Notes under the pieces: generated by a model
Told to the model about the DNA's origin: nothing
Seen by the model: only the letters and a program-made list of their open reading frames with translations
Database searches by the model: none
Translations under genes and position numbers: made by a program
In this document: positions 2,651 through 10,291 of the stretch, piece by piece
Position numbering within the stretch: the first letter of the stretch is position 1
Layout of the letters: every line of letters starts with the position of its first letter
Virus record (IMG/VR): IMGVR_UViG_3300045988_011202
Span: 1-39,590 of that record
Reading direction: 5' to 3' (one strand)
Origin: a virus
DNA length: 39,590 bases

Positions 2651-3307
2651 ATGGAAAAAACTTTACAGGATATTTGCAGAGAGGCAAAGGAGTACCAGCA
2701 TCTTACCACGCAAGACTTAGCCGATTTAACAGATCTGTCATCGTCCACGATCAGCAATTACTTTTCTGCATCGTCAAAGGATCCAAGCCTATACAAAATG
2801 GGGCTTATATGCGCCGCCCTCGGTGTGTCTATAGATGAGTATTTTGGTATCGTAAAGAGACCAACCACGGAGGAGCAGCTGGCAGAGGCACATAGAGCAA
2901 TGGCCGATGCAGATGCAAAGCATAGCGCAGCCCTACGCATTGCGCACTTGGAGGGCGGCATGGAGCAACTGACCGGATCAGTGGCAAAGCATGAAAAAAA
3001 GGAGCGCGTATTGCAAATTTGGGTGTATATCCTGGCGTTTTCGCTGTCGATTTCCGTATCCATAATATTTGGATATTTGGCGTTTGACTCAAGCGTCCCC
3101 CACACGGGGCTTATCCGCAACGGGCAGATTACATCACTCGGCTGGATGCTATTTGCGCTGCTTGCAGTAGGCGTCGGTGTAATCATTGCTGCGCTGATAA
3201 ATGCACTGCGATATTACAGGCACCATCAAACCGATAAAAATATAGGGCAGGAGGATAAAAATGGGAAAAGCAATGAGGAGGGCCAACGGAACCGGGACAG
3301 TGTATAA
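2651..3307 (+). CDS. membrane-tethered XRE-family HTH protein (HTH, coiled coil, 2 TM helices)
   Basis: 218 aa with RBS GGAGGGG. The HTH is LTTQDLADLTDLSSSTISNYF...AALGVSIDEYF. The TM helices are VLQIWVYILAFSLSISVSIIFGYLAF and LGWMLFALLAVGVGVIIAALINAL. Confidence 0.75.
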   Translation: MEKTLQDICREAKEYQHLTTQDLADLTDLSSSTISNYFSASSKDPSLYKMGLICAALGVSIDEYFGIVKRPTTEEQLAEAHRAMADADAKHSAALRIAHLEGGMEQLTGSVAKHEKKERVLQIWVYILAFSLSISVSIIFGYLAFDSSVPHTGLIRNGQITSLGWMLFALLAVGVGVIIAALINALRYYRHHQTDKNIGQEDKNGKSNEEGQRNRDSV

Positions 3308-4262
3308 GCTCGCCGGCCGCCGCCGCAGGCCTTGGGTGGCCGCAAAGCAAAAAATTATTATAGGATATTACCCCACCAAAAAAGATGCTATAGCGGCGCT
3401 GGAACGTCTTGCAGGCAAGGATTTAACGGAGCGGTACAACATGACCTTTGCCCAGGTGTTCGACGCTTGGAAAGAGGAGCATTACAAAAAAATAGGGCCA
3501 AACGGTATAGAGGGCTATGATGGCGCATTTAAAATTTTTGCGCCGCTGCATGAGCGGAAGTTCCGAGACTTAAAAACGGCGGATTTCCAGGGCGTGCTGG
3601 ATGCCCACATGCATAAATCCCACAGCACTGTGTCCAAGTATAAGCAACTCATAACGCAGATGTCCACATGGGCCATGCGTGAGGAGATCATCACAACAAA
3701 TTTTGCAAAATTCGCCCAGCTACCGGAAAACATAAAGAAAGAAAAAGAAACATTTACCGATGTAGAAATAAGCAAGCTGGAGGCGGACGGCAGCGACACC
3801 GCAAAAATTATCCTCATGCTGATTTACACAGGCATGCGCATAGGGGAATTGTTTTCCCTCCCGACTAAAGACTATCACAAAGATTATGTGATCGGCGGCG
3901 AAAAGACGAAAGCCGGGCGGAACAGGATCATCCCCATCCGCCCTGAAGGGCTCCCATACTTTGCCTATTTTGCAAATAAGGCCACCGGCCCGCTGCTCAT
4001 ATCCGGCTATGCTGGGGAAAAAATCCCAGCAAACTTCCGCCGCCGGGATTATTACCCGCTTTTGGAGAAATTAAAAATCCAGCGCAAAACGCCGCACTCC
4101 ACCCGGCACACCTATGCGAGCTGGGCGAGAAAAGCGGGGATTGCTCCAGAGATGCTGCAGAGGATCATCGGCCACGCCAACTACTCCACTACCGCAAATA
4201 TATACGTCCATACGTCAGCGGAGGAATTGGTGCAGGCCGTTAAAAAGGCGAAAATTTGTTAG
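3261..4262 (+). CDS. int: tyrosine site-specific integrase
   Basis: 333 aa with AGGAGG 7 nt upstream. Catalytic signature: GMRIGEL..., HSTRHTYASW, GHANYSTTANIYVH (R-H-R-H-Y). Confidence 0.95.
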   Translation: MGKAMRRANGTGTVYKLAGRRRRPWVAAKQKIIIGYYPTKKDAIAALERLAGKDLTERYNMTFAQVFDAWKEEHYKKIGPNGIEGYDGAFKIFAPLHERKFRDLKTADFQGVLDAHMHKSHSTVSKYKQLITQMSTWAMREEIITTNFAKFAQLPENIKKEKETFTDVEISKLEADGSDTAKIILMLIYTGMRIGELFSLPTKDYHKDYVIGGEKTKAGRNRIIPIRPEGLPYFAYFANKATGPLLISGYAGEKIPANFRRRDYYPLLEKLKIQRKTPHSTRHTYASWARKAGIAPEMLQRIIGHANYSTTANIYVHTSAEELVQAVKKAKIC

Positions 4263-7750: not shown

Positions 7751-7787
7751 TAAAAAAAATCCGGGCAGATAAACTGCCCGGATTCTG
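7751..7787 (-). terminator. rho-independent terminator (minus strand) closing the RHH operon
   Basis: Minus-sense AATCCGGGCAG-UUUAU-CUGCCCGGAUU followed by UUUUUUU. Confidence 0.75.
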
Positions 7788-7804
7788 CCTGGATTCTGCA
7801 ATGA

Positions 7805-7945
7805 TTAATCTTCTTTTTTTATTGCCTCTTTAATTAGTTTCTCGATGTAGTTCGAGACGCTGCGCCCATCCGCTTCAGCGGCGGCCTGCAGTTGGGATTT
7901 GAGATCCGGCGTGATCCGGATTACGAGACGGTCTGTTTTTGCCAC
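7805..7945 (-). CDS. ribbon-helix-helix (CopG/Arc-like) DNA-binding protein, 46 aa
   Basis: GTG start after GGAGGT. VAKTDRLVIRITPDLKSQLQAAAEADGRSVSNYIEKLIKEAIKKED shows the classic RHH beta-alpha-alpha pattern. Confidence 0.7.
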   Translation of the reverse strand: MAKTDRLVIRITPDLKSQLQAAAEADGRSVSNYIEKLIKEAIKKED

Positions 7946-7961
7946 TTGCTACCTCCAAAAT

Positions 7962-8366
7962 TTAATCCCACATATGCGCTACGCAATATGCGCTCCATTT
8001 TTCCTCCATCTCGGATATGGCTACGTTATAATCCTCACCCGCCAAAATTTTATGCGCAGCGGATTGACCGGCTGTGCGTTTGGCGTAATTTTCGGCCTTG
8101 CTCCACTCATCCGCCTTGAGATATGCAACAGCTTTTGGATATTGCTTGCGCAGCGCATCAAGATCGTGAGTCGGCTTAGGGCGGACACCCATACCGCCAC
8201 ACGCTGCATCACCCTCAAAGGACGCATTTAGTTCCCGATGCCACGCTCGTAAATCGGCCTGCGCGTTTCTGATTTCCGATAGCCCCGGAATGGCGTTTAT
8301 CTTGGCCGCCAAGTCTTGCGCCTCTTGTTTTTCGGATCGCTCTTTTTCCAGTAAGTAATCCATCAT
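7962..8366 (-). CDS. hypothetical 134-aa protein (accessory operon)
   Basis: The start MMDYLLEKERSEKQ lies 8 nt after GGAGGTG. The longer ORF-track start would overlap the upstream gene. Confidence 0.7.
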   Translation of the reverse strand: MMDYLLEKERSEKQEAQDLAAKINAIPGLSEIRNAQADLRAWHRELNASFEGDAACGGMGVRPKPTHDLDALRKQYPKAVAYLKADEWSKAENYAKRTAGQSAAHKILAGEDYNVAISEMEEKWSAYCVAHMWD

Positions 8367-8367
8367 T

Positions 8368-8715
8368 TTAGTGCTCACCTCCATACTCTCCTGTGACATC
8401 CTCAACGTCAAAATTCCAGGAGTCCCCATTATTAATCTCGTCCTCGGTAAGCCCCTGCAATCCATCACCGTCTTCGCCCCTGTTAGCGTTTTCGCACTCG
8501 TGCTCCCACCAAGAGATCAGTTCATCGGCATCCTTATCTGTATAGGTATAGGCTTTGTCGCAACCACAATCGTCAAGATCAATGACATCATGGCCATCGC
8601 GCGCATCGTAACCGCCTATATCGTCAAAGCAATCGGGTTCATACCCGGCATTCCATCCGCCGCGCCAAAGGCGGAGGGTAATCTCCAGCAATCGAGTTTC
8701 GGTTTTGATAAACAT
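8368..8715 (-). CDS. very acidic 115-aa protein (candidate DNA-mimic or anti-defence protein)
   Basis: The start MFIKTETRLLEI follows AGGAGA. D/E-rich stretches include DCFDDIGGYDARDGHDVIDLDDCGCD...EDGDGLQGLTEDEINNGDSWNFDVEDVTGEYGGEH. Confidence 0.7.
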   Translation of the reverse strand: MFIKTETRLLEITLRLWRGGWNAGYEPDCFDDIGGYDARDGHDVIDLDDCGCDKAYTYTDKDADELISWWEHECENANRGEDGDGLQGLTEDEINNGDSWNFDVEDVTGEYGGEH

Positions 8716-8766
8716 TTGATTTTCTCCTTTCAAAATTGGCCTGTCCGTTATCTTTACTGTGGTTAC

Positions 8767-8795
8767 AGTGTACACCATTTGTACACATAATGCAA
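8767..8795 (-). promoter_or_regulatory. promoter of the acidic-protein/RHH operon, with two TGTACA palindromes 11 bp apart
   Basis: Minus-sense TTGCAT-17 nt-TACACT. TGTACA sits at 8769-8774 and 8780-8785 within direct GTGTACA repeats, inside the spacer and -10. A further inverted repeat TGCACAAA-N13-TTTGTGCA lies upstream (about 8808-8836). Confidence 0.5.
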
Positions 8796-8831
8796 GGAGA
8801 GAAGTGCACAAATTTTTATTATTTTTTTGTG

Positions 8832-8871
8832 CAAAAACGAAAAATAGCCGCACCCAAAAAGGGCACGGCTA
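8832..8871 (-). terminator. rho-independent terminator (minus strand only)
   Basis: Minus-sense AGCCGUGCCC-UUUUU-GGGUGCGGCU has two G-U pairs, which would be C-A mismatches on the + strand. It is followed by AUUUUUCGUUUUU. Confidence 0.65.
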
Positions 8872-8874
8872 CTT

Positions 8875-9150
8875 TTAGGAATTGAATGCATCCGCCAGTT
8901 TTTGGTATGCTCGGCGGCGCAATTTGTAAAATCCATCTACACTGATATGCAGTTTTGCCGCCGTCTGTACGCAGGTGCGGCCAAAAACGTCCACGTCAAT
9001 TACACAGGTTTCCTCGTCTTCCGGTAGCCCTACCGCGCGGATCGTTTCTGTGGCGCGGCATGGTGCCATAGTGGATAGTTTTTTGCGGATCCTTTTGTGC
9101 TGTTCTATCATTTTCCACGGTGTGCCGTGGAGGTGCGGATGCTTATGCAC
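8875..9150 (-). CDS. small sigma70-region-4-like HTH protein (start uncertain)
   Basis: The C-terminus TCVQTAAKLHISVDGFYKLRRRAYQKLADAF looks like a sigma region 4 / RinA-type HTH. The GTG start at 9150 has no RBS; the alternative is ATG 9111. Confidence 0.55.
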   Translation of the reverse strand: MHKHPHLHGTPWKMIEQHKRIRKKLSTMAPCRATETIRAVGLPEDEETCVIDVDVFGRTCVQTAAKLHISVDGFYKLRRRAYQKLADAFNS

Positions 9151-9241: not shown

Positions 9242-10291
9242 TCAGATGGGCAGCTCGTTCACTCTCTTCTGGACAGCAGCGTAGTCGTATCCAGCGGATT
9301 CGAGCTTGCAGCGACGCTCAGCACCGTTGCCCCATTTGCCGGCAATAACTTCCAGGGCAATCTCGTTAACTGACTTTTTCACAACACTACCAGTGCTGAT
9401 GGTGCTGAGATCAACCCAGCCATACACGCCGCTAATGTACGCGCCTTTGTCATTAACAGCTCGGAGGTGGATCGGATGCTTGCCGCTGCTTTTTGCCGTC
9501 ACTTTTGCCTTGGATGCCTTGACTTCAGTGCCGGATGTGGCATTTGCGCTCGTATAGTGCTTGCCTCCCTTGAAATCCACAATCTCGCCGACATTCACGT
9601 CCAGCGTGGCGGGCTTGCCCGGCTGCTCAGGCTCTTCCTTGCTGTTCAGCAGCTCATTCACGCGATCCTGCACGGCATCATAGTCGTACCCCTCTGCCTC
9701 CAGGCGCTGGCGGCGGTCGGAGCCATTGCCCCACTCGCCACGGATCACCTCCCGGGCAACCTCGTCCACGGACTTAGCAGGCTGGGCAGATAGACGGCTA
9801 TTGACCTCTGCGGCAATGCGGCCCATGCGCTTGTGCAGGTAGGGCCCGGGACAAGCCGTAGCCGTAAACATACGGTGCTCGGTCAGGTTGCCGTCTGCAC
9901 CCCCGGTGTAGTTAAGGGCCTTGATGCCGTTGCGCTGGCAGATGTCCACGCACAGGTCAATCAGCTTGCTATAAGCTGCATTGGACACGGGCCAGTCGCC
10001 GCCGGTGGCGCAGTTGGCAACCTCGATGTTGACGGCTCGGTTGTCGTTGCTGGGAGACGCAGAGGCCCATGCGCGGTCGCCCTCGTCCACATAGAGGCCC
10101 ACCCGGCCATCGGAGCCGATACCATAGTTGGAGCTGGCCTCGTAGCTGGGTTTGGCAAAGAGATTGCCGCAGGTCTCCACAGACAGATCACCGGCCATGT
10201 GATGGATGGTGATCTTGTCAATGGCGTGGTTCCGTGGATGGTCGCAGTTAGGGGAGAGTTTGGTGTAAGATACCAAGCTGGAATTACTCAT
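9242..10291 (-). CDS. endolysin: N-acetylmuramoyl-L-alanine amidase (Amidase_2/PGRP), CW_7 repeat, SH3-like domain, second CW_7 repeat
   Basis: Start MSNSSLVSYTKLSPN. ITIHHMAGDL...NIEVAN...TEHRMFTATACPG is an Amidase_2 pattern. There are two Cpl-7-type repeats (VAREVIRGEWGNGSDRRQRLEAEGYDYDAVQDRVNELL and ALEVIAGKWGNGAERRCKLESAGYDYAAVQKRVNEL). Confidence 0.93.
   Translation of the reverse strand: MSNSSLVSYTKLSPNCDHPRNHAIDKITIHHMAGDLSVETCGNLFAKPSYEASSNYGIGSDGRVGLYVDEGDRAWASASPSNDNRAVNIEVANCATGGDWPVSNAAYSKLIDLCVDICQRNGIKALNYTGGADGNLTEHRMFTATACPGPYLHKRMGRIAAEVNSRLSAQPAKSVDEVAREVIRGEWGNGSDRRQRLEAEGYDYDAVQDRVNELLNSKEEPEQPGKPATLDVNVGEIVDFKGGKHYTSANATSGTEVKASKAKVTAKSSGKHPIHLRAVNDKGAYISGVYGWVDLSTISTGSVVKKSVNEIALEVIAGKWGNGAERRCKLESAGYDYAAVQKRVNELPI

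Follow-up and report, generated by a model that had tools for sequence, protein, structure and literature searches.

A putative autoregulated cassette with exchangeable cargo genes behind the lysis genes of a temperate siphophage

Positions 7756 to 8876 of IMG/VR virus record IMGVR_UViG_3300045988_011202 hold a compact unit of one promoter and three small genes between two terminators, all on the minus strand. The record was analysed over positions 1 to 39,590 (the window, to which all coordinates refer), and the window is the genome of a temperate siphophage. The first two genes of the unit, ORF1 and ORF2 (ORF, open reading frame), encode proteins of 115 and 134 amino acids; the third encodes a ribbon–helix–helix (RHH) protein of 46 amino acids. 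We conclude that the unit is very probably a cargo cassette that is autoregulated by its RHH protein. What the cargo does is a less secure matter, and here we lean towards an action against host defence or against competing elements. A reading of the DNA made without database searches (the sequence-only reading) had likened the unit to the operons in which anti-CRISPR genes (acr) are followed by the gene of an anti-CRISPR-associated regulator (aca). The architectural part of that claim stands, for the operon is insulated by terminators, ends in an RHH gene and has repeats in its promoter; cargo swapping and AcrVA2 homologs in sibling loci can now be added to it. The anti-defence part does not fare as well, since no homology ties ORF1 or ORF2 of the window to known anti-defence proteins.

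How might such a unit work? A sigma-70-type promoter (8795–8767) would drive a short, unstructured leader and the three genes, of which ORF1, an acidic protein, and ORF2 would be the payload. As the RHH protein accumulates, it would bind two GYGYACA repeats, most likely as a dimer of dimers, and shut the promoter off. The two flanking terminators would isolate the unit from the lysis transcript on one side and from the downstream genes on the other. The payload slot itself is a swap site, relatives keeping the promoter, the leader and the RHH gene and carrying other small proteins, among them an AcrVA2 homolog. Because the slot is swapped in this way, with an AcrVA2 homolog among its occupants, the payload of the window most likely inhibits host defence or competing mobile elements. 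We infer DNA binding, repression, the timing of expression, and the anti-defence activity and its target, from the comparisons that follow.

If the regulator is the fixed part of the cassette, what stands before it in other phages? The comparison set amounted to about 40 related loci, and 34 sequences, the window included, were oriented on the leader. A search for exact matches to the 20-nt leader core CACAGTAAAGATAACGGACA retrieved 9 IMG/VR and 17 metagenome loci, so that the exact core is found in these 26 new loci, in 7 fetched earlier and in the window. The promoter class of the window (TTG-N3, 17 nt, TAC-N2-T) is present in 26 of the 34 sequences, and all loci of this class that are long enough to judge encode an RHH protein of 46–51 amino acids, often identical to that of the window. 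With RHH proteins that are 73–100% identical, we find six cargo families in eight gene orders. The order of the window, ORF1–short ORF2–RHH, recurs in 9 other loci. A long ORF1 of 187 amino acids may directly precede the RHH gene, or be separated from it by a full-length ORF2, or precede an RHH gene that is itself followed by a gene for a 352-residue AcrVA2-like protein (L036). The protein P78 occurs directly before the RHH protein and also in the order P78–full-length ORF2–RHH–348-residue AcrVA2-like protein. The acidic protein P70 occupies the slot on its own, as does P89, the fifth small protein, in L071, a locus that was found in a separate search with an alignment of the RHH proteins and whose own RHH protein is 73% identical to that of the window. 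In phages that carry P70, P78 or ORF1 in the slot the flanking genes are near-identical, and the RHH proteins are identical or differ by one residue. Just this pattern, in which the cargo is exchanged while regulator and promoter stay constant, is used to recognise acr–aca loci.

The RHH gene (7805–7945, minus strand, GTG start) is the last of the operon, and its product, a putative autorepressor of the Aca kind, is what the sequence-only reading had taken it to be. It passes the cut-offs of the Pfam models RHH_5 (E = 7.7e-8) and Arc (E = 6.5e-5), and the PHROG call is an Arc-like repressor; against Arc in the PDB the sequence match is marginal (E = 0.075). Compared with three siblings the gene shows no non-synonymous and 4–7 synonymous changes. 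All three genes of the unit are under purifying selection, with ratios of non-synonymous to synonymous divergence (dN/dS) of 0.00–0.26 relative to sibling loci.

Could the RHH protein be the antitoxin of a toxin–antitoxin module? It does match antitoxin models, TacA1 of Pfam above the cut-off and models of the ParD and VapB type below it, and it has weak RelB-like matches in NCBIfam. However, it is a bare 46-residue domain that ends right after the second RHH helix, with no C-terminal extension for binding a toxin; ORF2 homologs mostly occur without an RHH protein, and no toxin or defence model in Pfam or PADLOC matches ORF1 or ORF2. Above all, identical RHH proteins follow ORF2, P70, P78 or long ORF1, which are unrelated to one another. 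Because identical proteins pair with unrelated partners, we regard a toxin–antitoxin module as effectively excluded. The sequence-only reading had named just such an outcome as one that would speak against it, and these pairings and the ORF2 homologs without RHH contradict that outcome.

The Arc-like matches raise a second alternative, a switch resembling the immI region of phage P22 (Arc, Mnt, Ant), in which the RHH protein would control ORF1 as an antirepressor that inactivates the repressor of the prophage or a heterologous one. The window does encode two repressor-like proteins with a helix–turn–helix (HTH) motif and an integrase, and temperate phages are known to have small, acidic antirepressors that are tightly repressed. 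With Arc and Mnt the present protein shares a minimal RHH domain of about 50 residues, the Arc Pfam match and, by expectation, the binding of two dimers to promoter sites that are spaced by a helical turn. On the other hand, arc is the first gene of its operon in P22 whereas the RHH gene is the last one here; no homolog of Ant is present, the slot holds hypervariable cargo and, as noted, the match to Arc in the PDB is marginal. Phages with near-identical flanks carry ORF1, P70 or P78, unrelated to one another, in the slot, which would be unexpected for a cognate antirepressor, and ORF1 homologs are spread over many unrelated phages and over integrative elements with ArdA. We therefore consider such a switch improbable.

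What does the RHH protein recognise, if it represses its own operon? The promoter consists of a -35 hexamer TTGCAT (8790–8795) and a -10 hexamer TACACT (8767–8772) separated by 17 nt, where the sequence-only reading had placed it. It agrees with the consensus at 7 of 12 positions and lies below the pass mark of a consensus scan. In related loci the hexamers that stand in the same register directly before the same leader are TTGCAA-17-TACAAT, TTGACG-17-TACAAT or TTGAAT-17-TATAAT, which supports the promoter of the window as a real one. The TTG of the -35 hexamer is invariant in the 26 loci with a window-like promoter, the other classes having TTGACG or TTGAAT; the -10 hexamer of sibling loci is TACAAT or TATAAT at the same position.

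The putative operator TGTGTACAAATGGTGTACA (8769–8787, minus strand) holds two GYGYACA repeats that are 11 bp apart; it extends from the spacer into the -10 hexamer, of which it covers the first half. In the window these contain two copies of TGTACA, at 8785–8780 and 8774–8769, exactly 11 bp from one another. TGTACA occurs six times in the window, and this is the only such pair in 39.6 kb; a pair with at most one mismatch is expected 0.06 times by chance, and 5 of 100 shuffled sequences gave one or more. The two TGTACA palindromes of the sequence-only reading are thus present and unique in the window, but their palindromic character varies among siblings. At the first site, TGTGTACA is confined to the window, L002, L003 and L036, the other loci having TGCGTACA, TGCGCACA, TGTGCACA, TATGCACA or TGCACACA; at the second, GGTGTACA, GGCGTACA and GATGTACA occur. 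All loci with an RHH gene have the spacer motif TGYGYACA-WAT-GRYGTACW. By this alignment the conserved feature is a tandem pair of GYGYACA repeats in an 11-bp register that reaches into the -10 hexamer, and not a pair of palindromes. The pair (8787–8769 in the window) accompanies the RHH gene in all loci of the window promoter class that are long enough to judge, and L071, with its 73%-identical RHH protein and the promoter TTGACT-tgtacgcacagcgggcg-TACAAT, has a similar site.

The well-studied RHH proteins Arc, Mnt, CopG and omega act as dimers on sites that are spaced by roughly a helical turn, in many cases with cooperativity. The operator arrangement fits this established behaviour, by analogy with which the RHH protein would be expected to bind the repeats. 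A covariation between the RHH beta-strand and the operator was considered, with the substitution V8N in L023 accompanying a GCGCAC first site. It was rejected: GCGCAC also goes with RHH proteins that have V8 (for example in L028 and L033), and identical RHH proteins tolerate several operator variants. A second promoter class, TTGACG-ggtcgcacgaattagcg-TACAAT, precedes the same leader and holds CGCAC and GCGTACA at similar positions with no RHH gene nearby; promoters of this class may be controlled in trans.

The 29-nt leader GTAACCACAGTAAAGATAACGGACAGGCC (8738–8766, minus strand) lies directly 3' of the -10 hexamer and is followed by the ribosome-binding site of ORF1, AAAGGAG (8724–8730). Written as GTAAYCACAGTAAAGATAACGGACAGGCC, the leader stands behind the -10 hexamer of three otherwise unrelated promoter classes and before many different first genes. 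Is it shared simply because it was used to retrieve the loci? L071 was found through its RHH protein and also has the leader, with 4 substitutions, so that the sharing is not merely a product of the retrieval. An RNA element was considered and rejected, an Rfam search giving no match above threshold and RNA folding no fold signal in 4 of 5 variants. The leader might act in cis as a regulatory site, serve as a signal for translation or mark a junction for recombination. It was also noted in L027, L029, L040, L046 and L071.

We turn now to the cargo. ORF1 (8368–8715, minus strand) is the first gene of the operon, and its product is as acidic as the sequence-only reading had stated: 32 aspartate and glutamate residues against 8 lysine and arginine residues, an isoelectric point of 4.05 and a net charge of -24. 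Its dN/dS relative to siblings is 0.03–0.14. The 36 close homologs all come from gut metagenomes and are unnamed or called only 'hypothetical protein'; a tblastn search of GenBank phages found nothing. An exhaustive profile search extended the family to 117 clusters at 50% identity, with a median net charge of -17 over about 102 residues, and 97% of its members have a net charge of -10 or below. ORF1 and ORF2 match nothing in Pfam, PHROG, NCBIfam or PADLOC, and profile and sequence searches of the PDB with both families, and with P78 and P70, gave nothing relevant. Among 109 proteins of the ORF1 family that were scanned there was none with a match to ArdA of Pfam, and only one, P0157, with a match to any family. 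In this protein of 174 amino acids the ORF1 domain is naturally fused to a C-terminal HTH_3 domain (E = 4.9e-8), and the fusion resembles known anti-CRISPR proteins that bear their own regulator domain.

Is ORF1 a DNA mimic of the Ocr or ArdA type, as had been suggested from its acidity? The family is very acidic, is found on mobile elements and twice adjoins ArdA genes. The AlphaFold2 model of ORF1 (pLDDT 85), on the other hand, is a predicted beta-sheet packed on a long helix, for which Foldseek finds no neighbour in the PDB (best E = 2.2) and, in BFVD, only uncharacterised proteins of gut phages. With no match to ArdA in Pfam and no relevant structure or profile match in the PDB, we rejected an Ocr or ArdA fold; as the model has no PDB neighbour, negative charge is the one property on which the suggestion can draw.

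Where else is the ORF1 family found? It recurs between lysis genes and an integrase, a recombinase or a prophage end. Homologs are the first genes behind promoters of the TTGACA-17-TATAAT type, with an HTH protein later in the operon (L059, L060, L062, L053/L015 and L064), and the 17-nt spacers of promoters before ORF1 homologs hold an inverted repeat (ACCACACATTGTGTGGT, TCACCATATTGGTGA or AGCACCGAATCAGTGCT). A member adjoins an ArdA-YodL-DUF4316 polyvalent protein in L007, and in L086 and L087 a member is followed by ArdA on the same strand, at a distance of about 1 kb.

ORF2 (7962–8366, minus strand) begins with an ATG one base past the stop codon of ORF1. The sequence-only reading had listed it as a protein of unknown type, and no family match alters that description. 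We found 41 homologs, most of 175–188 amino acids; the longer ones examined carry about 50 extra residues at the N-terminus, an additional domain that is missing from the ORF2 of the window, which is an in-frame form shortened at that end, 48 codons shorter than P0037. Against L021 its dN/dS is 0.14 at a synonymous divergence (dS) of 0.55. Persistence of the short form over that divergence, at so low a ratio, is why we regard it as a maintained gene. In several diverged loci purifying selection maintains it in this shortened state. The AlphaFold2 model (pLDDT 89.5) is all helical and has no neighbour in the PDB by Foldseek (best E = 0.77). In L032 and L044 the C-terminus of ORF2 is frameshifted (P0038, 147 amino acids) and runs into the start of the RHH gene; ORF2 in these two loci looks like a decaying copy of the cargo.

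What, then, connects these cargo proteins with defence? In three sibling loci (L023, L024 and L036) the start of an AcrVA2 homolog overlaps the stop codon of the RHH gene. The 348-residue protein of L023 and L024 bears the precomputed Pfam label AcrVA2-like, and that of L023 matches chain 7ci1_A of the solved AcrVA2 structure with E = 3.1e-8 over a C-terminal stretch of 110 residues that contains RPHMRRGHWH. The HxRRGH residues are thereby preserved in the L023 protein; in AcrVA2 itself H286, R288 and H291 are needed for activity (bioRxiv 10.1101/2022.11.29.518452). The operon of the window contains only ORF1, ORF2 and the RHH protein and no protein with the C-terminal H-x-R-R-G-H of AcrVA2 and FinQ, which was found in the siblings only.

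The association with AcrVA2 homologs recurs under other regulators. In L074 a member of the ORF1 family (57.8 bits to the family profile in hmmsearch) is followed by an HTH protein and then by an AcrVA2-like protein. As this order mirrors the ORF1–RHH–AcrVA2-like order of L036, the same two cargo families appear to be bridged by two unrelated regulators. L073 encodes two acidic proteins, an HTH_3 protein and then an AcrVA2-like protein, behind a TTGACT-17-TATAAT promoter with an inverted repeat in its spacer. In the gut-phage loci L076–L085 a small acidic protein is followed by a 60-residue, weakly Arc-like protein (Pfam Arc, E = 0.027), a small protein and an AcrVA2-like protein. The only one of these loci with its upstream DNA read, L078 (1380–3510), has two copies of the promoter with the inverted repeat ACATCTGC-TT-GCAGATGT in its spacer, an arrangement that suggests one regulator controlling two promoters.

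Several points weigh against an autoregulated anti-defence cassette. The promoter of the window is weak by consensus. The recognition sequence of the RHH protein is not defined, since the half-sites vary while the protein stays identical. The proteins of the window operon match no known anti-CRISPR protein in the Pfam, PHROG, NCBIfam and PDB searches, and ORF1 and ORF2 of the window resemble no characterised anti-defence protein in sequence or fold. ORF2 homologs also occur with no RHH protein at all, some of them close to terminase genes and in a phage contig of 218 kb. Homologs of AcrVA2, FinQ among them, are widespread on mobile elements, mostly in the absence of Cas12a (bioRxiv 10.1101/2022.11.29.518452). 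Since that is so, the AcrVA2 linkage would point to a role in conflict between elements rather than to inhibition of CRISPR. The functional argument, as drawn from gene neighbourhoods, is one of guilt by association only.

The cassette might instead be a regulated moron, serving host takeover, superinfection exclusion or lysogenic conversion, in which the RHH protein would merely cap the dose of the product. Packaging between a promoter and a terminator after the lysis genes is classic moron anatomy, the cargo proteins are without recognisable function, and ORF2 homologs lie in varied regions of phages with no regulator. Against this, turnover of cargo round a fixed regulator, the sharing of operons with AcrVA2 homologs and the proximity to ArdA point to conflict genes. 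Many exclusion proteins, moreover, differ from ORF1 and ORF2, in which we saw no signal peptide or membrane segment in a by-eye reading made with no prediction tool. We think a moron unlikely, though clearly less so than an immI-like switch, and it is the main alternative to an anti-defence cassette because nothing ties the cargo of the window to a defence target.

How far, then, does the cassette resemble acr–aca operons? Small, fast-evolving cargo genes stand first and the gene of a small DNA-binding regulator belongs to the same operon; repeats overlap the promoter; a conserved regulator goes with swapped cargo; the setting is the accessory region of a temperate phage; and sibling operons contain a homolog of a validated anti-CRISPR protein, AcrVA2. 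It differs in that the regulator is an RHH and not the usual HTH protein, in that the repeats look tandem where a single inverted repeat is usual, and in that the window cargo has no known anti-CRISPR homolog and is known here from sequence. HTH proteins of Proteobacteria make up the majority of the Aca regulators known so far.

An RHH protein in the aca position is, however, already known. Aca14 of Pasteurella multocida (HDR1349883.1 / WP_005725436.1) is a 66-residue Aca of the RHH type; its target is an AT-rich inverted repeat located at the -10 hexamer, and it represses two acr operons. HTH and RHH regulators can substitute for each other in anti-defence operons (PMC13551039, published in 2026). 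Compared by description and not by sequence, the two cases have in common the place of the RHH protein in the operon and a motif overlapping the -10 hexamer. Aca14 has a helical extension, acts as a dimer on its AT-rich inverted repeat and comes from Proteobacteria, whereas the present protein has 46 residues and no extension, the repeats contain G+C and are in tandem (TGTGTACA/GGTGTACA), and the lysis genes are of the Gram-positive type. What is new here is the set of uncharacterised candidate cargo families.

To our knowledge, the anti-defence genes of phages of gut Firmicutes are poorly charted. The RHH protein of 46 residues, its operator and the 29-nt leader together make a search handle, which has recovered six small, uncharacterised cargo families and an AcrVA2 homolog at one swap site. 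From their sequence context, ORF1 and ORF2 appear to be good candidates for new inhibitors of bacterial immunity. If the cargo does inhibit defence, ORF1 by itself would bring in a family of over 100 sequence clusters whose fold has no counterpart in the PDB. Where sibling phages differ in nothing but their cargo, they offer a natural experiment on how cargo corresponds to the defences of the host. More tentatively, and with less than even confidence, we suggest that the ORF1 family is a new and widespread class of counter-defence proteins, in phages of gut Bacillota and in integrative elements, whose genes typically come first behind autoregulated promoters under interchangeable RHH or HTH control, and that the leader, shared by different promoter classes, is a new cis-element of such cassettes. 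The leader would then be, for example, a signal for early expression or a junction for the exchange of cargo.

What insulates the unit from its neighbours? A scan for intrinsic terminators found a hairpin at each end, as the sequence-only reading had proposed for a self-contained unit. The upstream hairpin (8840–8876, minus strand; proposed at 8832–8871) consists of a 16-pair stem with 7 G-C pairs, a loop of 5 and a T-run, and is kept in sibling loci. It ends the transcript of the lysis genes and of an upstream gene for 91 amino acids, and shields the cassette from read-through. The hairpin that closes the cassette (7756–7786, minus strand; proposed at 7751–7787) has a 13-pair stem, again with 7 G-C pairs, and a T-run.

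Upstream of the cassette lies an endolysin with Amidase_2 and CW_7 domains (10477–9242), preceded by a holin-like ORF. The 91-residue ORF (9150–8875, minus strand) stands between endolysin and cassette and has a weak match to sigma-70 region 4 (E = 0.014). It keeps the same position in the siblings with upstream DNA read (L021, L023 and L026). Past the cassette, and before the attachment site and the integrase, come eight small genes (7726–4520, minus strand) that are conserved across sibling phages; four of the eight match PHROG families without known function (phrog_3754, phrog_21718, phrog_22984 and phrog_16490). The tyrosine integrase (3261–4262) and the two HTH repressor-like genes (1252–1620 and 2651–3307) are on the other strand. 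L021, an 82-kb metagenome contig, has the same gene order and then bacterial genes (ftsK) about 3.3 kb past the RHH gene. From the point at which this order ends at ftsK, we place the cassette within the accessory block that follows the lysis genes, at the right prophage end, though not as its last unit. The position that the sequence-only reading had assigned, after the endolysin at the prophage end, is right in so far as the cassette belongs to the accessory region behind the lysis genes, at the right prophage end, a setting that recurs for the ORF1 family; it is wrong in so far as the eight conserved genes follow the cassette before the attachment site and integrase are reached.

The domains of the lysis genes point to a Gram-positive gut host, probably one of the Bacillota (Firmicutes). 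In the genome collection ORF1 has a single match, L053 (CAVHCH010000078.1), an 11-kb contig of a metagenome-assembled genome labelled Bacteroidaceae. This label conflicts with the lysis genes of Gram-positive type, and the contig is therefore probably mis-binned.

Some minor observations may be added. The block of eight genes after the cassette is also conserved in the more distant L064, and one of the eight encodes a glycine-rich protein of 238 amino acids with a terminal cluster of cysteines. The sibling cargo proteins P78, P70 and P89 have no match in Pfam, PHROG, NCBIfam or PADLOC. A CRISPR-like or tandem array after the P78-like gene of L027 was considered and rejected, TRF finding none. 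What can be seen there, at 9900–10120, and also in L040, L046 and L048, are dispersed iteron-like AAAGTCGC repeats downstream of the P78-like gene, in loci of the TTGACG class.

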